From Candidatus Woesearchaeota archaeon (GTDB lineage: Archaea > Nanobdellota > Nanobdellia > Pacearchaeales > GW2011-AR1), in assembly GCA_964408905.1 (NCBI GenBank), contig CAYPBD010000003.1, positions 19,197-29,937 on the forward strand: DNA of 10,741 nt, in the 5' to 3' direction. A program made the position numbers and the translations under genes. Below, piece by piece: positions 4 through 9,735 of this stretch (the first letter of the stretch is position 1; each line of letters begins with the position of its first letter). The notes below the pieces were generated by a model, which saw nothing but the letters and a program-made list of their open reading frames with translations, searched no databases and was not told the DNA's origin.

Positions 4-459
4 TTATTTCAATTTAAAATATAAAAAAGCAAAAACTAATCCTAAAATAAATAATCCAGTTCCGATAAATCTTGAATTATTTTGAGTTAAATCAAAAACA
101 GAATACCCCGTTAAGCTAACTGAAGTAAATAATAAAGCAGATAAAAGAAATATTATAGATAAAGATGCAAAGAAAAATCTTTTTTCTATACCCTCTTCTT
201 TTCTAGCTCCTGGTTTTAATTTATCTTCTATCATTTTTATTAGCTTAGGATCTTTTGTAAATTCTCTTACTTCATTTAAAATTTGATGTGCCATATAAGA
301 ATTTCCTTTTTCAATAAATCCTCCAGCAGCAGAAGCATATCTTCTAACTACTTTACTCTGAGGAGGGCCTCTTTTAAGATTAGTGCTCCTCCTTGCCATA
401 TTATGCGCTTCCTTATAAAGTTCTTCAGGAGATTCTCCTGTATAATCCCCTCTTACCAT
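4..459 (-). CDS. hypothetical membrane-anchored protein (basic soluble N-terminal ~95 aa plus two C-terminal TM helices)
   Basis: 151-aa ORF with ATG at 459-457 (rc) and TAA at 6-4. It has two hydrophobic segments (FFFASLSIIFLLSALLFTSVSL and FIGTGLFILGLVFAFLYF). A TTTAAA box lies 21 nt upstream. It is longer and more protein-like than the + strand shadow ORF 283-489. No family recognised. Confidence 0.55.
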   Translation of the reverse strand: MVRGDYTGESPEELYKEAHNMARRSTNLKRGPPQSKVVRRYASAAGGFIEKGNSYMAHQILNEVREFTKDPKLIKMIEDKLKPGARKEEGIEKRFFFASLSIIFLLSALLFTSVSLTGYSVFDLTQNNSRFIGTGLFILGLVFAFLYFKLK

Positions 460-480
460 ATATTATCTAACATTAACAAA

Positions 481-488
481 TTTAAATA
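481..488 (-). promoter_or_regulatory. TATA-box-like element (TTTAAATA on +, TATTTAAA on -) for the 151-aa gene
   Basis: The AT palindromic core TTTAAA sits with 21 nt (460-480) between box and ATG. The same spacing is seen at 5 other genes in this window. It lies in the 34-nt spacer after the ATPase stop codon. Confidence 0.4.
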
Positions 489-493
489 ACTTT

Positions 494-2776
494 TCAAATC
501 CTTGTTTTTTTAACTTCTTCATTTAACCACTTCTGCCATTCAGGAAAAACTCTTTCACTCAAGGGCAATCCAATTTCCTCTCTTACTTTATCAGAAATTT
601 TATGAAACATACGATTAGATAAAGAAGTAAAACCAGCTTCTAAAATTTTTTCATTATTTATTTTTTGAGAAGTTTCAAAAATTTCTTTTTTCATTTTAGC
701 CCTTAATAAAATATTATCATAAACAGCATCCCAGTTTCCAGCCCACCCTTTTACATTAGAAGCAATATCTTTAACAACTTCACTATCACCATTAATTAAA
801 TCCTCGGTAGGTTCCAACTCATCTTTCTCAACATTATATTTCAATAAATCAACAAATCCTTTTTCTAATGAAGGATCTTCTTTCCAATGCTTTCTAATTT
901 CAGAAATTTGAACAACTCTTTTATATGCATGTAAACCATCTGGAGACTTTATTGGATTACAAACCGCAATTATGTCTGTTGCCTTAAATGAAGTAGCCGG
1001 AACACCCAAATCATTTACAACTCTATCAAAAACACCATAAGGGGAAGCACCGTGAATTGTTCCTGCAACAACATTTGCCAAAGCACCAACTCTCATCGCC
1101 TCATACAAAGCCTTTGCCTCAACGCTCCTAACTTCACCAATAATTAAACAACTATCCCCCAATCTCAAACTTGTTCTTATTCCATCATCAGCAGCAACTT
1201 CAGTAGTTGTTTTTAACAAAGCAGAACGAACCTTCATTCTCAAAATATCATAATCTAATTTTCTCAGAGATTCAACAGGTAGTTCCAACGAATCCTCAAC
1301 AGTAATAATTCTAAACTTAGGAATTATCTCAAGCATTAAACTTCCAAGCAAAGAGGTCTTACCAGAACTTCTTGTTCCAGCAACCAAAAGAGTCCTTGCT
1401 CCGTCAATCAAAAAACTCAGCAAACCTGCAGTAAAAGAATTTATCATCTTATATTTTATAAAAAGAGGCAAGGTCCAGGGAGATTCTCTATGTCTTCTAA
1501 TAGCATAGGCCAAACCATCTGGAGATAAAGGTCTTTGAATTATTGCAATTCTTGCTCTAATCTTTCCAATCTCAAGTTGAGTATCTAAGATAGGATTTGC
1601 TTCATCTAATGGTCTTCCAGAAATAACTCTAAACTTAGCAGCCCAAGAGTTTATATCTTCTTGACTTGGAAGAATATTTGTAGAACATTCATCATAATCC
1701 TGATGTCTTACAAAAATATTTGTTAATGAAATAGGGGCATTCAAAAAAATATCTTGAAGTTTCTTATCCTGAAGTAAAACCTCAATCAAACCAAAACCAA
1801 TCGTATGTCGCACAAGAATTGTGGCCAATTTATTTAAATCAGAATAATCCAATTTTATCCTTTTAGTCTGAGCCAAATCCTGTAATAAATCTTTAGCAAT
1901 ATTAAAAAAAACCTGTCTAATTCTTTCAGTATCTGTAAATTCCTCTGCCCTAGGCTGATGTTCAATTAAAACACTTCGTGCCAAATTCAAAAGCATTCCA
2001 TATTCTTCACTTAAAGAATTTTCAGGTGGATTCAAATGATAAATCAATTTAACTGCATCTTTTTTTCTTAAAACAGTTACAAAAGAAACATCATAATCTT
2101 CACCAATTTTATATTGGTCAACAATTTCAGCATCTTCTGGTAAATCAGAAACAAGTCGGGTAAAAGTAAAATTAGGAATTACATCAGGTCTGAAAATTTT
2201 ATTATAAATATCTCTGTTTCCCTTTTGATAATTCTCAAGAGGAAGAACAGCCTGAATCAATTTTGTTTTTTCAATCAATCCAAAAATTCTTTCCAATAGA
2301 TGTACATAATTTAATTGGTCTATTTTACATCTAGCATCAACTTTGCTAAGAAAAATTTTAGCTTCAATAATAATTTTTCTTAATTCAACATAAGCTGCAA
2401 TTGGATCTTGTTTTAATAAATAAAGAAAAGAAAAAAGAGCATTATATCTTTGAGAGAAAAATTGTTCACAATTAGTGATAAGCTTTTCTTGTGATAAAAT
2501 CTTTTCTTGACGAACAAAATAAACATAAAGTTGAGCAATCTCCAAAAGTAAATTTGTTTCATTTAAATCATAATTATAATTTTTTTGCTGAACAAATACA
2601 ATTCTTGAAACATTTGGATTTTCTATTAAAACATCAATAGTTCTTTCCATAATCTCTGGAGAATCAGAAAGACTTGGAACATAAGGGGCTCCTAAATAAT
2701 TAATGTAAATAACATCTTCACCTTCTTCTCTTTGAACTTCATAAGAATATAATTTTGCACCTTCTGCGAATTGCAT
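494..2776 (-). CDS. type II/IV secretion-superfamily ATPase (archaeal FlaI/PilB/VirB11-like), unusually long
   Basis: 760-aa ORF. Walker A GTRSSGKT is at aa 467-474 (nt 1355-1378, verified codon by codon). The Asp-box/Walker B region is RIITVEDSLEL ... CLIIGEVR (nt 1127-1150). The His box is AGTIHGAS, and an AIRRHR motif precedes Walker A. This is the motif set and order of the GspE/PilB/FlaI family. The ~400-aa N-terminal region and ~135-aa C-terminal extension have no motifs I recognise. Confidence 0.85.
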   Translation of the reverse strand: MQFAEGAKLYSYEVQREEGEDVIYINYLGAPYVPSLSDSPEIMERTIDVLIENPNVSRIVFVQQKNYNYDLNETNLLLEIAQLYVYFVRQEKILSQEKLITNCEQFFSQRYNALFSFLYLLKQDPIAAYVELRKIIIEAKIFLSKVDARCKIDQLNYVHLLERIFGLIEKTKLIQAVLPLENYQKGNRDIYNKIFRPDVIPNFTFTRLVSDLPEDAEIVDQYKIGEDYDVSFVTVLRKKDAVKLIYHLNPPENSLSEEYGMLLNLARSVLIEHQPRAEEFTDTERIRQVFFNIAKDLLQDLAQTKRIKLDYSDLNKLATILVRHTIGFGLIEVLLQDKKLQDIFLNAPISLTNIFVRHQDYDECSTNILPSQEDINSWAAKFRVISGRPLDEANPILDTQLEIGKIRARIAIIQRPLSPDGLAYAIRRHRESPWTLPLFIKYKMINSFTAGLLSFLIDGARTLLVAGTRSSGKTSLLGSLMLEIIPKFRIITVEDSLELPVESLRKLDYDILRMKVRSALLKTTTEVAADDGIRTSLRLGDSCLIIGEVRSVEAKALYEAMRVGALANVVAGTIHGASPYGVFDRVVNDLGVPATSFKATDIIAVCNPIKSPDGLHAYKRVVQISEIRKHWKEDPSLEKGFVDLLKYNVEKDELEPTEDLINGDSEVVKDIASNVKGWAGNWDAVYDNILLRAKMKKEIFETSQKINNEKILEAGFTSLSNRMFHKISDKVREEIGLPLSERVFPEWQKWLNEEVKKTRI

Positions 2777-2797
2777 AAATGAAAAAAGTATAAATAG

Positions 2798-2805
2798 TTT
2801 AAATT
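2798..2805 (-). promoter_or_regulatory. TATA-box-like element for the ATPase gene
   Basis: TTTAAATT on + (AATTTAAA on -), with 21 nt (2777-2797) between box and the ATG at 2776-2774. This implies a leaderless or near-leaderless transcript. Confidence 0.4.
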
Positions 2806-2879
2806 ATTTTGTATATTTTAAGGAAAGGATGACCTGATGTCCTCGCAATCACAACAAATTTAAACCGCTTTGACATCAT

Positions 2880-2887
2880 TTTAATAT
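2880..2887 (+). promoter_or_regulatory. TATA-box-like element for the + strand coiled-coil operon
   Basis: TTTAATAT is the only TATA-like box upstream of the 2933 ATG on the + strand. It lies 45 nt from that ATG but 22 nt from an out-of-frame ATG at 2910 (see findings). Confidence 0.3.
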
Positions 2888-2932
2888 GACAGAAATCAAA
2901 AGGGAGTTGATGGGTCAAGAAAGTATCTTACA

Positions 2933-3256
2933 ATGGCTGAAGAACAAGTAAATTATACAGGACAATATTTTGGAGATATAAATTCTAAAATGAAAGATTT
3001 AGAAGAAAAACAAAGAATATTAAAAGACCGGCTTCTCTTAATAGGACAAAATCTTATAGAAACAAAAGAAGAAACAAATCAAAAAATTCTTGAAATAAAG
3101 AAAAATATTGAGATAATTAAACAGAATATGGAAAGGATAATTTCTTTTGTGGAAATAGCATCAAGTGAATTTTCCAAATTCGCTAGAAAAGAAGATTTAG
3201 AAATTTTATCAAAACAAGCAAAAATGTTTCAACCTTTAAAATTAATAAAAAAATAA
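2933..3256 (+). CDS. hypothetical coiled-coil protein (107 aa)
   Basis: ATG at 2933 is the only in-frame start after the TAA at 2882-2884. A long heptad-like charged/hydrophobic pattern is present (KMKDLEEKQRILKDRLLLIGQNLIETKEETNQKILEIKKNIEIIKQNMERIISF). There is no TM segment or catalytic motif. Its stop at 3254-3256 is followed 1 nt later by the next ATG. Confidence 0.6.
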   Translation: MAEEQVNYTGQYFGDINSKMKDLEEKQRILKDRLLLIGQNLIETKEETNQKILEIKKNIEIIKQNMERIISFVEIASSEFSKFARKEDLEILSKQAKMFQPLKLIKK

Positions 3257-3257
3257 A

Positions 3258-3938
3258 ATGGCTGTTTTAGATCAAATACAACAAATGAAAAATCAGGGAA
3301 TGCCTGATGAAGAAATTGTAAGAAATTTACAAGACCAGGGAATATCTCCCAAACAAATAAATGATGCACTTAACCAATCACAAATAAAAAGAGCTGTTGT
3401 TGATGAAAGAGATATGGATCCAGCAAATCAAAGAGCTCCTCCTTACCCAAATCAACAAGCTCAAGGAAATTATGTTCCTCAGACCCAAGAAGTTCCTGAG
3501 TCTCCAACACCGAGTGAACAAACATATCAACAACAAGAATATTCTCAGCCTCAAGAAGGATATCAAGGATACCCAGAAGAAGAATATGCTTACCCTTCTG
3601 GAGGAATGGATAGTGATACTATAATTGAAATTGCAGAACAAGTTTTTTCTGAAAAAATGAAAAAAACACAAAAACAAGTAGATAATTTAAGTGAATTTAA
3701 AACTCTTGCACAAACAAGAATAGAAAATATTACAGACAGACTCAAAAGAATAGAAACAATTATTGACAAATTACAAATTTCAATTCTTGAAAAAATAGGT
3801 TCTTATGGAGACAATATAGATAATATCAAAAAAGAAATGTCAATGATGCAGGACTCTTTTGGAAAAGTAGTAAATCAAGCAGTAAAAGGGAAATCAACTT
3901 CTAAAAAAACATCAGGGAAAAAGATTTCCAGAAAATAA
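3258..3938 (+). CDS. hypothetical modular protein: small helical N-terminal head, Q/P/Y/E-rich disordered linker, C-terminal coiled coil, Lys/Ser-rich tail
   Basis: 226-aa ORF. The head is aa 1-45 (MPDEEIVRNLQDQGISPKQINDAL, a helix-turn-helix-hairpin or UBA-like pattern; inference). The linker is aa 54-116. The coiled coil is about aa 140-205 (RIENITDRLKRIETIIDKLQISILEKI...). The tail is KGKSTSKKTSGKKISRK. Two shadow ORFs lie on other frames in the linker region. Confidence 0.65.
   Translation: MAVLDQIQQMKNQGMPDEEIVRNLQDQGISPKQINDALNQSQIKRAVVDERDMDPANQRAPPYPNQQAQGNYVPQTQEVPESPTPSEQTYQQQEYSQPQEGYQGYPEEEYAYPSGGMDSDTIIEIAEQVFSEKMKKTQKQVDNLSEFKTLAQTRIENITDRLKRIETIIDKLQISILEKIGSYGDNIDNIKKEMSMMQDSFGKVVNQAVKGKSTSKKTSGKKISRK
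3903..3909 (-). terminator. oligo-T (T7 on - strand) candidate terminator for the 178-aa membrane protein gene
   Basis: A7 on the + strand equals T7 on the - strand, about 32 nt downstream of the - strand stop at 3941-3943. It lies inside the 3' end of the convergent 226-aa gene. Confidence 0.25.
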
Positions 3939-3940
3939 GA

Positions 3941-4477
3941 TTAAGTAGTTTTTTTCCCAGAAACAATCATAGCAACAACAAGCCCCACAATAACTACAAC
4001 TGCAATAATCATTGACCAATTATCCAACCACCATTGAGCAGCAGACCAATTAAGAGCTCCAGCAGTATTCACTAAAACAACAATGATTATAATTCCTGCA
4101 ATTCCAAGAAGTATATAATTAATCCATTTATCTCTATTTGTCTCATCCTTTAAAAAAAGACCTGCCACAATCATTATAACTAAAATAATTGCCAAAGCAA
4201 TTCCTAGATTAGGAAAGATAACTGAAAAAAATTCAGAAACTGCTGGAACTTGTATTGCTATTAACCCCACTGCCAAAGAAATAATTGCATTAATAACTTT
4301 ATTATCTTTAAATAAATTAAGTTTAAGTAATATTCCAAACATAAAAGCAAAAATTAGTAAAAAAGGAATAATATAACTGAAAAAACCCATTTGATACCAA
4401 ACATCAAACATGTTTCCAATAGTTGTACCATCAGCAGAACCATATGAAGCTAAAAAAATCATCAACTCTTTTATCAT
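3941..4477 (-). CDS. hypothetical polytopic membrane protein (178 aa), paralog of 4523-5020
   Basis: It has about five hydrophobic helices. The core IIPFLLIFAFMFGILLKLNLFKDNKVINAIISLAVGLIAI aligns to the neighbour (16 identities in my 41-column hand alignment). Both have a Trp-rich segment before the last TM and a short basic C-terminus. Confidence 0.7.
   Translation of the reverse strand: MIKELMIFLASYGSADGTTIGNMFDVWYQMGFFSYIIPFLLIFAFMFGILLKLNLFKDNKVINAIISLAVGLIAIQVPAVSEFFSVIFPNLGIALAIILVIMIVAGLFLKDETNRDKWINYILLGIAGIIIIVVLVNTAGALNWSAAQWWLDNWSMIIAVVVIVGLVVAMIVSGKKTT
3949..3955 (+). terminator. oligo-T (T7) candidate archaeal terminator for the + strand pair
   Basis: The T7 run begins 11 nt after the TAA at 3936-3938. 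It is embedded in the last codons of the convergent gene 3941-4477. Confidence 0.3.
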
Positions 4478-4496
4478 AAGATAAAATAAGAAAACT

Positions 4497-4504
4497 TATT
4501 TAAA
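4497..4504 (-). promoter_or_regulatory. TATA-box-like element (TTTAAATA on - strand)
   Basis: There are 19 nt between the 8-mer and the ATG at 4477 (21 nt from the TTTAAA core). The flanks resemble those of the box at 5042-5049. Confidence 0.4.
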
Positions 4505-4522
4505 TATGTTTCGAAGTTCTCA

Positions 4523-5020
4523 TTAAGAACTCTTCGCTGGATTTTTCAAAACCAATGCTAATGCAACTGCAATTACAATTACAAATAAAATATTTGTCCA
4601 AAAAGTGCCTGTCCATTCTCTATCAGATATCCAGCCAAGAAAATTTGTTTGTGTAGTTAATATCCATATAATTAAAAAAAGAAATCCAATTCCTACACCA
4701 ATTATTAATACCCATTTCATGAATTTTGGATTAATTAATTCTGTATCTCCTTCAGTAATAAACCCCCATAAAAATAATACAACAAATACAACAATCATTG
4801 CTATTGTTAAAAATAAAACCAAATTTGTAATTACTTCTTTTGGGAAAACAGCAGTTACAAAAACCACACCAACAACAAAAGCTATAATAGCATTAAGAGT
4901 TTTCTTTCCCTCTCCTAAAATTTTAGTTTTTTCAAGTAAAGCAAAAGCTATAATAAAAACTAATAAGAAAGGAAGAATAAATTCCTGAAAAACAGGAGTT
5001 TGAAAAATTGTGTCTGCCAT
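4523..5020 (-). CDS. hypothetical polytopic membrane protein (165 aa), paralog of 3941-4477
   Basis: It has five hydrophobic segments. The core ILPFLLVFIIAFALLEKTKILGEGKKTLNAIIAFVVGVVFV is homologous to the neighbour. The + strand ORF 4605-4988 is its shadow. Confidence 0.7.
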   Translation of the reverse strand: MADTIFQTPVFQEFILPFLLVFIIAFALLEKTKILGEGKKTLNAIIAFVVGVVFVTAVFPKEVITNLVLFLTIAMIVVFVVLFLWGFITEGDTELINPKFMKWVLIIGVGIGFLFLIIWILTTQTNFLGWISDREWTGTFWTNILFVIVIAVALALVLKNPAKSS

Positions 5021-5041
5021 AACCTATTAAGACTAAAATAG

Positions 5042-5049
5042 TATTTAAA
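5042..5049 (-). promoter_or_regulatory. TATA-box-like element (TTTAAATA on - strand)
   Basis: There are 21 nt between the 8-mer and the ATG at 5020. Confidence 0.4.
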
Positions 5050-5080
5050 TGTTTTTGAATATTTAAGAAAACTTTTCAGA

Positions 5081-5359
5081 TTACATTAAGTCTTCTGGAA
5101 CTTCTTCAATATCAGAATCTGGATTTGGTAAAGCAGTTTTATTTATTATAAAAATATCACTAATAGCTTTCACAAACTGATGAGGAATTATCACACCCTT
5201 AGCTCCTCCAATCAGAGAAATAATGCTTCCACCTACTCTAATTCTCCAACCATCAATTTTATTTTCAGACAAATTAGCTTCTTCTACCTCTCCAAAAAAA
5301 TCCCCAGAATCAGTATAAACCTTTGTTCCAACAACATCACTTATTTTTTTAATCCTCAT
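5081..5359 (-). CDS. PRC-barrel domain protein (small stand-alone archaeal type)
   Basis: 92 aa. VVGTKVYTDSGDFFGEVEEANLSENKIDGWRIRVGG ... GVIIPHQFVKAISDIFIINK follows the PRC-barrel pattern (G-x-x-V-x-x-x-x-G-x-x-h-G-x-V-x-[DE], then h-x-h strand, then IP...V...D.hhh). The C-terminal tail is acidic (PNPDSDIEEVPEDLM). Confidence 0.7.
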   Translation of the reverse strand: MRIKKISDVVGTKVYTDSGDFFGEVEEANLSENKIDGWRIRVGGSIISLIGGAKGVIIPHQFVKAISDIFIINKTALPNPDSDIEEVPEDLM

Positions 5360-5380
5360 AAAATAAAAATCAATATATTC

Positions 5381-5388
5381 TTTAAATA
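5381..5388 (-). promoter_or_regulatory. TATA-box-like element for the PRC-barrel gene
   Basis: TTTAAATA on + (TATTTAAA on -), with 21 nt (5360-5380) to the ATG at 5359. Confidence 0.4.
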
Positions 5389-5416
5389 GTTTTCCATAAT
5401 TTATTATATAATAAAC

Positions 5417-5424
5417 TTTATAAA
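5417..5424 (+). promoter_or_regulatory. TATA-box-like element for the 5446 gene
   Basis: TTTATAAA, with 21 nt (5425-5445) to the ATG at 5446. Confidence 0.4.
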
Positions 5425-5445
5425 AAATCTTCCTCTTAATTAACC

Positions 5446-6078
5446 ATGTTTAATAAAAGAGAAATTTTTTCAATAATAATAGTAACAATTATTCTTGCCT
5501 TTGCAATTAATTTAATAGAAACAATGGAGAGTTTTCTTTATACTGTGCTTGCAGTATTTCTTATAATTACTATAAATATTATAGCAAAAAAAATTATGAG
5601 TTTTTATGCCGAATCAGAAATAGAAATAAAATTGTGGGAAATCACACAATATGGTTTTAAAGCACATAAACATTTCAAAAGACCTTTTCCAATAGGAGCT
5701 TTCCTGCCTCTCATTTCAAAAATTATTCTTTTTCCTATAAATGGTCTAGTCTGGATGGCTTCTCTTGTATTTGATGTAAAACCAAAAGTATATCGTGCAG
5801 CAAAAAGACATGGCCTTTATTCATTTTCAGAAATGACTGAATCGCATATAGGAATTATAGCATCAGCAGGAATTATAGCAAATATAATTTTTGCAGTAAT
5901 TGCATATTTTATCGGATTTCAGGAATTCACAAGATTAAGTATTTTTTATGTCTTTTTCAATATGATTCCATTATCTGATTTAGATGGAAATAAAATATTT
6001 TTTGGAAACATAGTATTATGGAGTTTTTTGGCTGCAATAGTTTTAATAGGATTATTTTTTACTCTTTTTATTGTATAA
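5446..6078 (+). CDS. polytopic membrane protein, M50 (site-2 protease)-like but lacking HExxH
   Basis: 210 aa and multi-TM. FNMIPLSDLDG (aa 171-181; nt 5959-5988 for N172-G181) matches the S2P/M50 N-x-x-P-x-x-x-LDG motif. An ASAGIIANIIF helix lies upstream, where M50 has its A-G-P helix. The only histidines are H74, H76, H122 and H134, and none is in an HExxH context. Confidence 0.4.
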   Translation: MFNKREIFSIIIVTIILAFAINLIETMESFLYTVLAVFLIITINIIAKKIMSFYAESEIEIKLWEITQYGFKAHKHFKRPFPIGAFLPLISKIILFPINGLVWMASLVFDVKPKVYRAAKRHGLYSFSEMTESHIGIIASAGIIANIIFAVIAYFIGFQEFTRLSIFYVFFNMIPLSDLDGNKIFFGNIVLWSFLAAIVLIGLFFTLFIV

Positions 6079-6091
6079 TCATTCTAACAAA

Positions 6092-7639
6092 ATGAAATTT
6101 TTAAAAGGAATCACTCCAAGAGAATATCAACAAAAGATATTTGAAAAATGTATAAATAAAAATTGTTTAGTTATTTTACCAACAGGATTAGGAAAAACAT
6201 TAATTGCTCTGATGTTGTCTATAAAAAGGATGCAAAGTTTCCCTGGGCAAAAAGTCATCTTCCTTGCACCAACAAAACCTCTAGTTGAACAGCATCTTAA
6301 CTATTTTAAAAAATATCTTCCTGAATTATTTGCTGAAATGATTTTATTTACAGGAAAAATAAATTCTAAAGAAAGACAAAAACTTTGGGAAATATCCGAC
6401 ATTATTTTTTCAACACCTCAATGTATTGCTAATGATTTAAAGAAAAACTTGTACAATTTAAAAGAGGTTTGCCTTTTAATAGAAGATGAAGCTCATAGGT
6501 GCATAAAAAATTATGACTACAATTATGTTGCCCAACAATATATTAAACAAGCTAAACATCAAAGAATTCTGGGATTAACAGCTTCCCCAGGAAGTAACAG
6601 TTCAAAAATAAAAGAAATTTGTAAAAACTTATCAATAGAAGAGGTTGAATTAAGAACAAGAGATAGTGGTGATGTAGAACAATATCTTCAGGAATTAAAA
6701 TTTGAAAAAATAAGTGTTGATTTTCCGTCTGAATTTGAAGAATTAAGGCAAATATTTCTCAATCTATTTAAAAAATATACAGATGAATTAAAAAAAAGAA
6801 AAGTTCTTTGGGAACCTCCCTCTAAAATGAATTTAATTAAACTTCAAAAAAAGATTTTTGGAACTCTGTCAAGAGGAAACAAAAATTTCAATTATATGAT
6901 AGGAGCAAGCTTATGTGCTCAGGCAATAAAAATACAGCATGCATTAGAACTTTTAGAAACACAGACATTAATGAGTTTTAACAAATACTTAAAAAATTTA
7001 TTTGATCAGGCAAGACAAAAGAAAAGCAAAGGAGTTATAAAACTTGTAGCAAAACCAGAATTTAATTTTGTTTTTATGAGGAGCAATGAACTTTTAATAA
7101 AAAATACCGAACATCCAAAAATTCAAAAACTTATTGATATTATAAAAAAAGAAAAATTAAATAATCAAAAAATTAAAATTATTATTTTTACTCAATTCAG
7201 AGATACTGCAGTAGCAATATCAAACAAACTTAATGAAATTAAAGGAATAATATCTAAAGTTTTTGTTGGACAAGCCAAAAAGAACAATACTGGATTAAGC
7301 CAAAAAGAACAAAAACAAATAATAAACCAATTTTCTTCTGGAGAAATAAATATTTTATGTGCCACTTGTATTGCAGAAGAGGGATTGGATATTCCAGAAG
7401 TTAATGCAGTTATTTTCTATGAAGCAGTACCGTCAGCAATAAGAAAAATTCAGAGAAGTGGAAGAACAGCAAGACTTATGAAAGGCAAATTAATAATGTT
7501 AATTACAAAAAAAACAAGAGATGAAACCTTTTATTATATAGCAAATGCAAAAGAAAAAAAAATGCATAAAACTATACAAAAAATAAAAAAAGAAATATCA
7601 AATGGAATTAAACCAGATTATCAAAAAAAATTAATATGA
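6092..7639 (+). CDS. hef: Hef-type SF2 helicase (FANCM/Mph1/Hef family), helicase part only
   Basis: Walker A is PTGLGKT (nt 6179-6199). Motif II is DEAH (nt 6485-6496). Motif III is TASPG and motif VI is QRSGRTAR. An inserted helical region lies between the two RecA-like lobes. An ERCC4 nuclease ORF follows directly. I prefer the ATG at 6092 over the track's TTG at 6071, which overlaps the upstream gene. Confidence 0.85.
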   Translation: MKFLKGITPREYQQKIFEKCINKNCLVILPTGLGKTLIALMLSIKRMQSFPGQKVIFLAPTKPLVEQHLNYFKKYLPELFAEMILFTGKINSKERQKLWEISDIIFSTPQCIANDLKKNLYNLKEVCLLIEDEAHRCIKNYDYNYVAQQYIKQAKHQRILGLTASPGSNSSKIKEICKNLSIEEVELRTRDSGDVEQYLQELKFEKISVDFPSEFEELRQIFLNLFKKYTDELKKRKVLWEPPSKMNLIKLQKKIFGTLSRGNKNFNYMIGASLCAQAIKIQHALELLETQTLMSFNKYLKNLFDQARQKKSKGVIKLVAKPEFNFVFMRSNELLIKNTEHPKIQKLIDIIKKEKLNNQKIKIIIFTQFRDTAVAISNKLNEIKGIISKVFVGQAKKNNTGLSQKEQKQIINQFSSGEINILCATCIAEEGLDIPEVNAVIFYEAVPSAIRKIQRSGRTARLMKGKLIMLITKKTRDETFYYIANAKEKKMHKTIQKIKKEISNGIKPDYQKKLI

Positions 7640-8340
7640 AAAAAATAAATACAAAAACTATATTTAATATTTTTTCAAAAAAGAAAAATAAAAAAATAGA
7701 AAAGAAAAAACAAAAAGTTATAATTGACAATCATGAAAAAAATTGCCTTGTCCCATCTGAACTTAAGGACATGGGTTTTGAAATTGAATTTAAAGACTTG
7801 AAAGTAGGAGATTACATTGTTAGAGATGTAGTAATAGAAAGAAAAACAGTTTCAGATTTTATTTCTTCTATGATAAATAAAAGACTTCCTAAACAACTTG
7901 ATGAATTAAAACAATACAAAAGACCACTCCTTATTGTAGAAGGAATTGATGAACAGGACTTATACACAGAAGAATATTTTAAAGAAAAAATAGGAATGCA
8001 CCCAAATTCAATTAGAGGTTTCTTAATATCAATTGTGTTAAATCATAAAATCCCAATTATTTTTACAAAAAATACAGAAGACACTGCAAAATTTATTTCA
8101 GTTATACTTAAACGAAAACCCAAAGAAGTTTCACTTAATGTCTCAAAAAGAAATTTAAACCAAAAAGAAAGAATGCAATTTGTTCTTGAAAGTTTTCAGG
8201 GAATAGGTCCAAAAACAGCAAAAAAACTTTTAAACGAATTCAAGACAATAAAAAATATAATAAATTCACCTTTAGAAGAATTAAACAAAATTATTGGGAA
8301 AAAATCAGAAGTTTTCAGATTATTAGAAGAAAATTATTAA
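7636..8340 (+). CDS. hef: ERCC4/XPF-family structure-specific nuclease with C-terminal (HhH)2 (Hef nuclease part)
   Basis: The ERCC4 active-site signature is GDY (aa 58-60) ... ERK (aa 68-70, nt 7837-7845) ... SD. The C-terminal helix-hairpin-helix is FQGIGPKTAKKLLNEF ... EELNKIIG. The N-terminus is a Lys-rich linker-like stretch. The ATG overlaps the helicase TGA (ATGA, 7636-7639). Confidence 0.85.
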   Translation: MKKINTKTIFNIFSKKKNKKIEKKKQKVIIDNHEKNCLVPSELKDMGFEIEFKDLKVGDYIVRDVVIERKTVSDFISSMINKRLPKQLDELKQYKRPLLIVEGIDEQDLYTEEYFKEKIGMHPNSIRGFLISIVLNHKIPIIFTKNTEDTAKFISVILKRKPKEVSLNVSKRNLNQKERMQFVLESFQGIGPKTAKKLLNEFKTIKNIINSPLEELNKIIGKKSEVFRLLEENY

Positions 8341-8792
8341 ATTAATTTAGCTTCATCTCTTGAAAAATCATGATTACAATAATGACAAGTAAATTTTTTA
8401 TCTTTATAATAAATAACTGGAATTTCTTTTTCAGAAGAATCATTAGTAACACAATTTGGATTTGCACAATAAACTAACCCTTCTAATTTTTCAGGAATTT
8501 CTGCTTTTCTTTTTTCTTTAACTTTCCCATTTTCAATAATACTAATTGTAACATCAGGAGCAACTAAAGCCACTAAATTTAATTGATGGTTGTTTAATTT
8601 TCCATGCTCTATTTTTAAAATCCCTTTTTTTCTATTTGTTTTCTTAGTTTCATAACCCTCCCCTATAGAAACTCTACCATTTTGTTCTTGGTCTATATTT
8701 AAAATATTTACAATTTTCCAAACATTTCCATAAGGAATATGGTCTATTACAATTCCATTTTCTATATATCCAATTATTTGATTATTCCTCAT
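8337..8792 (-). CDS. pyrI: aspartate carbamoyltransferase regulatory subunit
   Basis: 151 aa. The N-terminal allosteric domain pattern is IENGIVIDHIPYG. The C-terminal Zn domain has cysteines at CANPNC ... CHYC. It overlaps the pyrB 3' end by 11 nt. Confidence 0.85.
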   Translation of the reverse strand: MRNNQIIGYIENGIVIDHIPYGNVWKIVNILNIDQEQNGRVSIGEGYETKKTNRKKGILKIEHGKLNNHQLNLVALVAPDVTISIIENGKVKEKRKAEIPEKLEGLVYCANPNCVTNDSSEKEIPVIYYKDKKFTCHYCNHDFSRDEAKLI

Positions 8793-9735
8793 TTTTGCCC
8801 CCTGTGACTAAATATAATAAAGATTTTCTAACATACAAACCATTTTCAGCTTGTTTCCAAAAAGAGGCATATTTTGAATCATCAACTTTTTTATCAACTT
8901 CAGTTATTTTAGGAAGAGGATGCATAATTTTTATATGAGAATTTCCTGAATTTTCCAACATATCTAAAGTCAAACAATATTTGCGAGATATTTTTTCATA
9001 CAAATCATCTCCTTCAAACCCTTTAGGAAATCTCTCCCTTTGTATTCTCGTCATATAAATAATATCAACATCTCTCAAACTTTTTTCTAAATCACTTAAA
9101 TCTCTTTCTTCTATTTTAACATTGTTAGCATCTTTAATAAAATCAGACGGCATCCTTAATTCTTTCGGAGAAATAAATGTAACATTACAATCTTTATATA
9201 AATTAAGAGCAGTTAAAAGAGAATGAACTGTTCTGCCATATTTTAAATCCCCTGCCATAATTATTTTTGTTCCATCTATTTTTCCTCTTAATTCTTTAAT
9301 TGTATATAAATCAAGTAAAGTCTGAGTTGGATGTTGATTTTGACCATCTCCAGCATTTATTACAGGACAAGAAATAACATCTGCAACAAGTTGAGCAGAA
9401 CCATCTTTGTTATGTCTAATTATAACAACATTAGGATTATAACCATTCACCATACGCGAAGTATCTCTTAAAGTTTCTCCTTTTTTTCTAGAACTTAAAT
9501 CAGGATTAAAATCAATTATATTTCCTCCCATTTGCATCATAGCCATCTGAAAACTCATTTTAGTTCTTGTACTTGGCTCAAAAAAAAGAGGGATCATTAT
9601 TTTTCTATTCAAACAATTTTCATACTTGTGGGGATTTTTTTCAATTTCATTAGCAACATCAAGAATAAGATCTATCTCATTACGCTTTAAATTATTAATA
9701 GAAATTATATCTTTTCCTTTGAATTCTTTTCCCAT
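8782..9735 (-). CDS. pyrB: aspartate carbamoyltransferase catalytic subunit
   Basis: 317 aa. Motifs present are STRTKMSF (the STRTR carbamoyl-phosphate motif), IIRHN, QHPTQ, GRTVHSL, TRIQRERF and HPLP. Confidence 0.9.
   Translation of the reverse strand: MGKEFKGKDIISINNLKRNEIDLILDVANEIEKNPHKYENCLNRKIMIPLFFEPSTRTKMSFQMAMMQMGGNIIDFNPDLSSRKKGETLRDTSRMVNGYNPNVVIIRHNKDGSAQLVADVISCPVINAGDGQNQHPTQTLLDLYTIKELRGKIDGTKIIMAGDLKYGRTVHSLLTALNLYKDCNVTFISPKELRMPSDFIKDANNVKIEERDLSDLEKSLRDVDIIYMTRIQRERFPKGFEGDDLYEKISRKYCLTLDMLENSGNSHIKIMHPLPKITEVDKKVDDSKYASFWKQAENGLYVRKSLLYLVTGGKNEE
8798..8802 (-). promoter_or_regulatory. Shine-Dalgarno-like G5 upstream of pyrI
   Basis: The - strand reads GGGGG-caaaa-ATG. 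A G-run is conspicuous in this AT-rich sequence and sits 5 nt from the start, inside the pyrB 3' end. This is consistent with SD-dependent initiation of an operon-internal gene. Confidence 0.35.

Follow-up and report, generated by a model that had tools for sequence, protein, structure and literature searches.

The DNA analysed here (the window) is a stretch of 10,741 nucleotides (nt) from contig CAYPBD010000003.1 of assembly GCA_964408905.1, classified as a Candidatus Woesearchaeota archaeon, with a guanine plus cytosine content of ~28%. Its left 6 kb holds eight open reading frames (ORFs) around the subject of this report, a 760-amino acid (aa) secretion-superfamily ATPase. An earlier note, made from the sequence alone, had described these eight genes with spacers of 1-156 nt; all were confirmed at the same places, the spacers measuring 34, 156, 1, 2, 45, 60 and 86 nt from left to right (Table 1). 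To the right lie genes for a Hef helicase, an XPF nuclease, PyrI, PyrB, LigT and an arginase-family protein. Neither tRNA genes nor Rfam families were found in the window, and Pfam and NCBIfam scans detected no T2SSF platform, pilin or A24 peptidase encoded inside it.

Table 1. Coordinates of the features in the left part of the window, with the basis for each (TM, transmembrane).
Feature	Position in window	Strand	Basis
151-aa protein, cytoplasmic helical N-terminal part and C-terminal two-TM hairpin	4..459	-	Hydropathy
Secretion-superfamily ATPase of the putative type IV filament locus, 760 aa	494..2776	-	Pfam T2SSE, motifs, PDB relatives
Promoter-like element ACAAAATAATTTAAAC, ends 20 nt upstream of ATPase start codon	2797..2812	-	Conserved alignment block
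Promoter-like element ACAAATTTAAAC upstream of 107-aa gene	2854..2865	+	Motif scan
107-aa soluble coiled-coil protein, first gene of two-gene unit divergent from ATPase	2933..3256	+	Generic coiled-coil matches
226-aa coiled-coil protein	3258..3938	+	Family alignment
178-aa 5-TM membrane protein	3941..4477	-	Paralogue of 165-aa protein
165-aa 5-TM membrane protein	4523..5020	-	Paralogue of 178-aa protein
92-aa stand-alone PRC-barrel protein	5081..5359	-	Pfam PRC 3.3e-8, residues 4-75
210-aa M50/S2P-like membrane protein lacking HExxH	5446..6078	+	Pfam M50 in orthologues

The ATPase matches Pfam T2SSE (6.2e-16) and has intact Walker A (GTRSSGKT, 467), Asp box (494), Walker B (544) and His box (572) motifs, which upholds its earlier description as FlaI/PilB-type. 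Its closest relatives in the PDB are Archaeoglobus GspE (2oap, 7.8e-25), CpaF (1.5e-23) and FlaI (2e-15). Because the match to 2oap spans query residues 215-605, the catalytic core was placed at ~residues 215-630, leaving ~215 extra residues at the N-terminus and ~130 at the C-terminus. Of the NCBIfam models, FlaI (NF058587) scored best (1.4e-36, 126.4 bits versus a cut-off of 550), with TadA (5.7e-34, far under its cut-off) and the bindosome BasE model NF053672 (5.4e-20, 71.6 bits versus a cut-off of 1000) also matching, the latter more weakly than FlaI and TadA. With scores so far under the cut-offs, both archaellum and bindosome were rejected as family assignments. Homologues at ~80% identity fall into more than 120 protein clusters, in which the source names given are Pacearchaeota or Nanoarchaeota.

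Some long ATPase orthologues (P0114, P0241-P0245, P0249 and P0252; 1,260-1,780 aa) match the query in two to three stretches. One of them, P0114, contains intein and LAGLIDADG domains (PF14528, PF14890), and inteins appear to have invaded this ATPase repeatedly.

The window edge lies 3 nt past the 151-aa gene, which accounts for the absence of a platform, pilins and an A24 peptidase inside it. A 3,013-bp metagenome contig (L084) continues the sequence: its bases 1-106 are the reverse complement of window positions 106-1, and beyond this overlap it encodes a 165-aa paralogue of the hairpin protein (150-647) followed by a 724-aa polytopic protein, P0124. The gene for P0124 starts ~700 nt past window position 1 in the same population, and the listing of both the window ATPase (P0001) and P0124 with a longest contig of 29,937 bp suggests that the two lie on one contig. 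By hydropathy, nine TM segments are predicted for P0124, together with two soluble stretches, each ~135-150 aa long (~142-277 and 443-592). When its AlphaFold model (mean predicted local distance difference test score, pLDDT, 70) was compared with the PDB using Foldseek, the sole compact matches fell on the cytoplasmic domains of EpsF (2vma, 2vmb, 3c1q), OutF (5nbg) and PilC (2whn), with probabilities of 0.97-1.0, target TM-scores of 0.63-0.71 and root-mean-square deviations of ~3 A; the PilC chain of the type IVa pilus machine model 3jc8 was also returned. Distant orthologues, linked to P0124 by a family hidden Markov model (HMM) at 1e-64 to 1e-118, match Pfam T2SSF on their first cytoplasmic domain at 26.5 bits (L092) and 25.4 bits (L152) against a cut-off of 25.2, and lower scores were obtained for the orthologues at L122, L099, L101 and L130. 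On the strength of the structure comparison and these T2SSF matches, the 724-aa protein is concluded to be a divergent platform of the GspF/PilC/TadC/ArlJ type. In this clade the platform is too divergent for the standard Pfam model, and for this reason automatic annotation under-reports the locus.

The 151-aa protein, with hydrophobic segments at 96-114 and 132-150, shares 51% identity in its C-terminal 100 residues with a hairpin paralogue at the related locus L002. Such a gene lies between the ATPase and the platform in 23/120 loci, and nothing lies there in 63/120, indicating that the hairpin protein is an optional membrane accessory encoded between these two genes.

Two related loci, L002 (ATPase 89% identical) and L003, show what follows the platform. 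Past the hairpin gene they carry a second hairpin paralogue and a 723-aa polytopic protein, then a series of small proteins, each with one hydrophobic helix at the N-terminus, a protein with an Amidase_2 domain and a gene for a Peptidase_A24 (L002 21337-22194, 3.2e-11). Across relatives with ATPases 75-89% identical, seven to nine class III signal-peptide proteins and a prepilin peptidase are encoded past the platform; pilin-like families lie downstream in most relatives' loci with enough flank, and of 48 eligible close loci 33 have an A24 peptidase no more than 10 kb away. The class III signal families (d4, d7, d9, d10, d11 and d12) share [KR][GA] followed by ~20 hydrophobic residues, and in one small pilin-like family the signature RG|QGLSTN is present in 35/35 members. 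A contig titled 'Bacillota bacterium' (L064, DATKUW010000085.1) has the complete archaeal gene order of the locus, with an ATPase 75% identical, and is probably mis-binned.

An ATPase, a platform, class III signal-peptide proteins and a peptidase constitute the four-part core of type IV filament (TFF) systems in archaea (bioRxiv 10.64898/2026.04.22.720090). Taken together, the data make it very probable that the window is cut inside a TFF (pilus-like) locus of a Pacearchaeota-type DPANN archaeon, and a complete locus of this type is conserved over ~270 species-level genomes with ATPases ~80% identical. The earlier note had observed that the canonical partners of the ATPase were missing and had proposed that its neighbours may replace them, advising a search beyond position 1 for a platform and pilin cassette, the presence of which would refute it. 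The absence is real within the window and does not extend past its edge, since the T2SSF-type platform follows position 1 in the same population (L084) and pilins and the A24 peptidase follow in relatives; with a platform encoded directly beyond the edge, the proposed replacement is unsupported. The 'orphan ATPase' is thus an effect of the window edge.

By analogy with known machines, the A24 peptidase would trim the class III signal peptides, the hexameric ATPase would dock on the cytoplasmic domains of the platform, and ATPase activity would drive pilin insertion into a surface filament or short pseudopilus, probably serving host attachment. Within the DPANN archaea, Pacearchaeota rank with the most reduced and the most strongly attached to hosts, and there are reports of type IV pili in several DPANN lineages. 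Several points weigh against a filament locus. P0124 itself has no Pfam T2SSF match and no sequence match in the PDB (phmmer, profile), its global Foldseek E-values are ~1, and no internal repeat was detected between profiles of its N- and C-terminal halves in a shallow alignment (effective sequence number 1.5). The pilin cassette and A24 peptidase were seen in relatives, the window's own population having been read only as far as the platform. Moreover, a filament has never been observed in this lineage, and one preprint calls type IV pilus components missing from DPANN genomes.

The locus was compared with known systems. Archaeal type IV pili and other TFF systems (Aap, Ups, Epd, Haloferax Pil; bioRxiv 10.64898/2026.04.22.720090) have the same four core parts, clustered with lineage-specific accessories; the locus described here differs in its unusually long ATPase with extra N- and C-terminal regions, in a platform that escapes Pfam T2SSF within the clade, and in a cassette (L002) that holds an amidase fused to a pilin-like N-terminus. 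The Tad/Flp pilus and afGspE supply the best matches to the ATPase core (2oap, CpaF and TadA), and some platform orthologues carry the JGI name TadB. However, here there is one fused platform rather than separate TadB and TadC, other Tad genes were undetected at the locus, and all scores lie far under the family cut-offs. The archaellum motor (ArlI/ArlJ) likewise has an ATPase and platform as its core. That the ATPase is itself the archaellum motor ArlI/FlaI, and the locus that of a swimming organelle, would agree with the JGI label 'flagellar protein FlaI' on some orthologues and with FlaI being the best-scoring NCBIfam model. This is nevertheless extremely improbable: the score of 126 bits falls far short of the 550 required of an equivalog, afGspE and CpaF come before FlaI among the solved structures closest to it, and no Pfam match to archaellum families (archaellin, arlF/G/H, arlX, arlCDE) was found among the L002 and L003 genes or the scanned L002 downstream proteins, a result that applies to the locus only.

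The spacer between the ATPase and the 107-aa gene is enlarged by insertions at four loci (L016 957-9928, L168 12449-20501, L030 4887-9904 and L044 6828-9950). The inserted genes run in the direction of the ATPase, are mostly large and in some cases encode pilin-like N-termini, and their products are probably secreted; the block in L016/L168 encodes a Peptidase_C25 protein as well as a Peptidase_S8/NosD protein of 1061 aa whose N-terminus is pilin-like. The ATPase retains its own promoter box in the loci with insertions. This spacer is a growing edge of the pilus locus with variable 'cargo', an arrangement that is neutral on whether the coiled-coil genes belong to the machine.

The pilin cassette of L002 also includes a 410-aa protein (18608-19840) that combines a class III signal N-terminus, NNRG|TEKMTAVYWFAILLIV, with an Amidase_2 domain (4.8e-17). 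That an archaeon should carry a predicted peptidoglycan-cutting amidase on a pilin anchor is a hint of bacterial hosts.

These enzymes bear on the kind of machine that the locus encodes. Rather than a long adhesive pilus, it could specify a bindosome-like or type II-secretion-like device for display or export. The amidase within the pilin cassette and the proteases of the L016/L168 cargo are what such a device might carry, and the ATPase does match the BasE model. That match is far under the cut-off and weaker than those to FlaI and TadA, small filament-subunit-like pilins such as the RG|QGLSTN family are present, and a short pseudopilus is not distinguished from a long pilus by the present data. 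A display device of this kind is therefore possible and rather unlikely, and the same low probability is attached to the proposal that class III signal-peptide enzymes (peptidoglycan amidase, proteases) would be presented by it in order to attack a host cell or to feed on it.

What is left over from the filament locus is a conserved flank of four genes beside the ATPase, for which a link to the machine is possible and unproven. Conservation of the neighbourhood was assessed in two sets of loci: 80 species-representative genome loci (ATPase 75-89% identical), from 273 genomes matched, and 80 metagenome loci obtained via alignment of distant full-length orthologues (ATPase 35-83% identical to that of the window). 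An HMM of each neighbour family was searched on all loci, the ATPases were clustered at 70% identity into 45 clusters, and a family was scored as adjacent in a cluster if 50% or more of the loci with enough flank in that cluster carried it. A neighbour-joining tree was built for the loci with enough upstream flank and read with the per-cluster counts.

The platform was adjacent to the ATPase in 35/39 clusters, the 107-aa gene in 29/45, the 226-aa gene in 25/41, and the 5-TM genes in 22/37 (178-aa) and 21/35 (165-aa). Counts for the remaining families were 12/34 for the PRC barrel, 12/33 for the M50-like gene, 10/27 each for Hef and XPF, and 9/24 for LigT. The ingroup divides into four clades, and all four keep the coiled-coil pair and the 5-TM block. 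The block of PRC, M50-like, Hef, XPF and LigT genes lies next to the ATPase in only two of them, with one monophyletic clade lacking it. Co-occurrence of the neighbours with the ATPase, on which the proposal of a module had depended, was thus found for the coiled-coil pair and 5-TM paralogues and not for the PRC and M50-like genes. The alternative offered in the earlier note, a collection of unrelated lineage-specific genes, fits the latter two.

Outgroup loci (ATPase at most 41% identical, with a different, Cys-rich N-terminus) have none of the in-window neighbours, some retaining the platform and pilins and others the ATPase alone; the 107-aa gene is missing from all 14 clusters at this level of identity. 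Examples are the ATPases of L085, L094, L095 and L099, which are 36-40% identical and have Cys-rich N-termini such as FDCRNCPYNTSIAEDPRC; these loci lack coiled-coil and 5-TM neighbours, and some also lack an adjacent platform.

The coiled-coil and 5-TM descriptions given for these four genes were upheld. Members of the 226-aa family have a helical N-terminal domain of 45 aa and a C-terminal coiled coil of ~95 aa, both of them conserved and separated by a variable linker rich in P, Q, E and Y, and end in a basic KKxSKKK tail. For both coiled-coil families Pfam and PDB searches returned generic coiled-coil matches only, apart from DUF7626 on the N-terminal domain of 226-aa members, and a profile search of the PDB with the 107-aa family found nothing specific. 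The two proteins were also considered as paralogues of each other, which was rejected as they share no homology. In the archaellum, ArlX and ArlCDE act as scaffolds and offer a model for coiled-coil proteins that scaffold an ATPase. The proteins described here differ from these in having no TM segment, and FlaC_arch matched weakly and inconsistently, in only 6/44 coiled-coil family members (best 0.0015).

The 156-nt spacer separating the ATPase from the 107-aa gene contains two blocks conserved over 52 aligned sequences (the window and 51 loci). Both have the form ACAAA-N0-5-TTTAAAC, each oriented in the direction of its gene. In the window this motif occurs twice, versus 0.07 matches expected. 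Across 82 related loci (1.32 Mb) there were 105 matches; 47 sit just upstream of the ATPase ORF and 46 just upstream of the ORF for the 107-aa protein, with a median distance of 21 nt, so that 93 of the 105 precede one or the other gene. The full motif was found within 60 nt of the start codon in 0/13 other neighbour families, which have other TATA-like variants there, and it is not conserved in more distant clades. The common promoter-like motif lends modest support to the view that the ATPase and the 107-aa gene are co-regulated in the close clade. Two further elements are shared in upstream regions: TTTATTAA is common to those of the platform and two small pilin genes, and TATTTAAA to those of the 178-aa 5-TM gene and the PRC gene.

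Every gene beside the ATPase in the window might instead be functionally unrelated to it, retained only through slow change of gene order in small genomes. Genes that plainly have nothing to do with pili (Hef, XPF, LigT and the arginase) keep their synteny too, both in most close relatives and in two of the four deeper clades, and the second block was lost in a single monophyletic event, so that few independent events are available. In addition, the coiled-coil pair, which has no homology to any known pilus accessory, is parted from the ATPase by cargo of up to 13 kb in L016/L168. The same observations count against a place for the pair in the filament locus: synteny extends in half of the clades to unrelated genes (Hef, XPF, LigT), and slow genome rearrangement alone could account for much of the coiled-coil linkage. 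On the other side, the pair is kept about as widely as the platform within the ingroup and survives an inversion at L156, where it still adjoins the ATPase, and the ACAAA-N0-5-TTTAAAC motif is nearly exclusive to the ATPase and 107-aa gene. We regard retention by neutral synteny as evenly balanced between true and false. That the coiled-coil pair is a cytoplasmic accessory or co-regulated partner of the machine falls somewhat short of an even chance.

The 178-aa and 165-aa membrane proteins are 29% identical to each other (E 1e-8). An AlphaFold model of the 165-aa protein (pLDDT 75) shows five long helices and found no fold match in the PDB (Foldseek, best E 1.7). Per-member Pfam scans of the 5-TM family gave scattered membrane families only, with no T2SSF in 48 members, and a profile search of the PDB found no relatives. 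Among 120 homologues listed of 284 for the 165-aa protein none has a Pfam domain, and the informative names are Pacearchaeota or Nanoarchaeota. In clades with ATPases 50-64% identical the family forms a tandem of three with 5-13 nt spacers, located upstream of the 226-aa gene (L105, L106, L108, L114, L116, L121, L123, L131, L140, L160 and L164).

With regard to remote homology, the 107-aa, 226-aa and 5-TM proteins were placed in no known family by any method used. The 5-TM paralogues were considered as a platform substitute, and this was rejected, as neither Pfam, PDB profile nor fold indicates any likeness to T2SSF. The idea that lineage-specific accessories surround the ATPase survives for the coiled-coil pair and the 5-TM genes, not for a role as substitutes. 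A functional tie between the two 5-TM paralogues and the machine is considered doubtful.

The earlier note's wider proposal was of an ATPase without canonical partners that works with its in-window neighbours as a non-canonical machine; in the form considered here, the 5-TM proteins would serve as platform, the coiled coils as stator or scaffold, and the PRC barrel would tie it to division. The proposal is in keeping with the lack of T2SSF, pilin and A24 matches inside the window and with co-occurrence of the coiled-coil and 5-TM genes with the ATPase. Against it stand the T2SSF-type platform directly past position 1, the pilins and peptidase of relatives, the dissimilarity of the 5-TM family to T2SSF, the separation of the PRC and M50-like genes from the ATPase in half of the clades, and the division of the region into at least four transcription units. 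Such a machine is very unlikely.

A joint reading is that the coiled-coil pair and tandem 5-TM paralogues are clade-specific structural parts of a DPANN pilus machine, co-regulated with it, which displays host-attacking enzymes. Under this proposal the pair may form a cytoplasmic scaffold on the enlarged N-terminus of the ATPase and the 5-TM proteins a small membrane complex beside the platform; co-regulation may proceed through ACAAA-TTTAAAC, and the amidase and proteases with pilin-type signal peptides may be the proteins displayed. As a whole it is speculative and more probably wrong than right by a wide measure.

The PRC-barrel identity of the 92-aa protein was confirmed, and it matches the solved PRC-barrel proteins 8qzo and 8onw at 3e-8 each. 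PRC-barrel proteins occur in 509/524 archaeal genomes, mostly as stand-alone genes, and their distribution parallels that of FtsZ and SepF (bioRxiv 10.1101/2023.03.28.534520, 10.1101/2023.03.28.534543). The CdpB division proteins are likewise single PRC barrels of the same size; the papers gave no confirmation that 8onw and 8qzo are CdpB structures, and nothing ties the 92-aa gene to the ATPase. The division-associated link suggested for the locus is not borne out, the PRC gene adjoining the ATPase in a minority of clusters and sharing its block with Hef, XPF and LigT. The 92-aa gene is a small stand-alone PRC-barrel gene of the ordinary sort, to which CdpB also belongs, and a neighbour rather than a part of the pilus locus.

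The description of the 210-aa protein as M50-like and lacking HExxH also held. Peptidase_M50 scores 21.9 bits on the window copy versus a cut-off of 27.2 and matches 34/38 orthologues (E<=0.01, best 2.5e-8), and a profile search of the PDB with the family found nothing specific. Like site-2 proteases, the family has this weak, consistent Pfam match and an NxxPxxxLDG-like motif: [LIM]DG is present in 51/53 members (LDG in the window copy), with D180-G181 invariant. It differs in that neither HExxH nor HxxxH occurs in any of 53 members, N44, K48 and K49 being conserved where HExxH would be, and in its predicted co-transcription with the Hef helicase, whose start the gene overlaps by 8 nt and which it directly adjoins in most close loci. 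Because HExxH is absent from all 53 members, the 210-aa protein is unlikely to be a metalloprotease. Both its gene, co-transcribed with Hef/XPF, and the PRC-barrel gene are unrelated housekeeping neighbours of the filament locus.

Strand and spacing resolve the region into four units. The first runs from the ATPase through the 151-aa hairpin gene and beyond the window edge. The second, divergent from it, comprises the 107-aa and 226-aa genes with a 1-nt spacer. In the third, the PRC, 165-aa and 178-aa genes follow one another, convergent on the 226-aa gene, and the fourth consists of the M50-like, Hef and XPF genes, with overlaps of 8 nt and 4 nt. Judged by strands, spacers and the distinct TATA variants of each gene, the left 6 kb comprises at least four transcription units and is not one module. 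A scan of the window for bacterial sigma-70 promoters and terminators gave no enrichment, the model not being applicable to an archaeon.

Two further observations concern the right part of the window. The pyrI and pyrB genes (8337-9735) lie between XPF and LigT in this window only. Within 10 kb of the ATPase they are absent from all 80 related genome loci, so that pyrimidine-synthesis genes seem to have been inserted locally here, in a lineage of minimal metabolism. Hef (6071-8340) is divided between two genes, one for the helicase and one for the XPF nuclease, with an overlap of 4 nt, and at L117, L129 and L161 one ORF matches both the Hef-helicase and the XPF HMMs.

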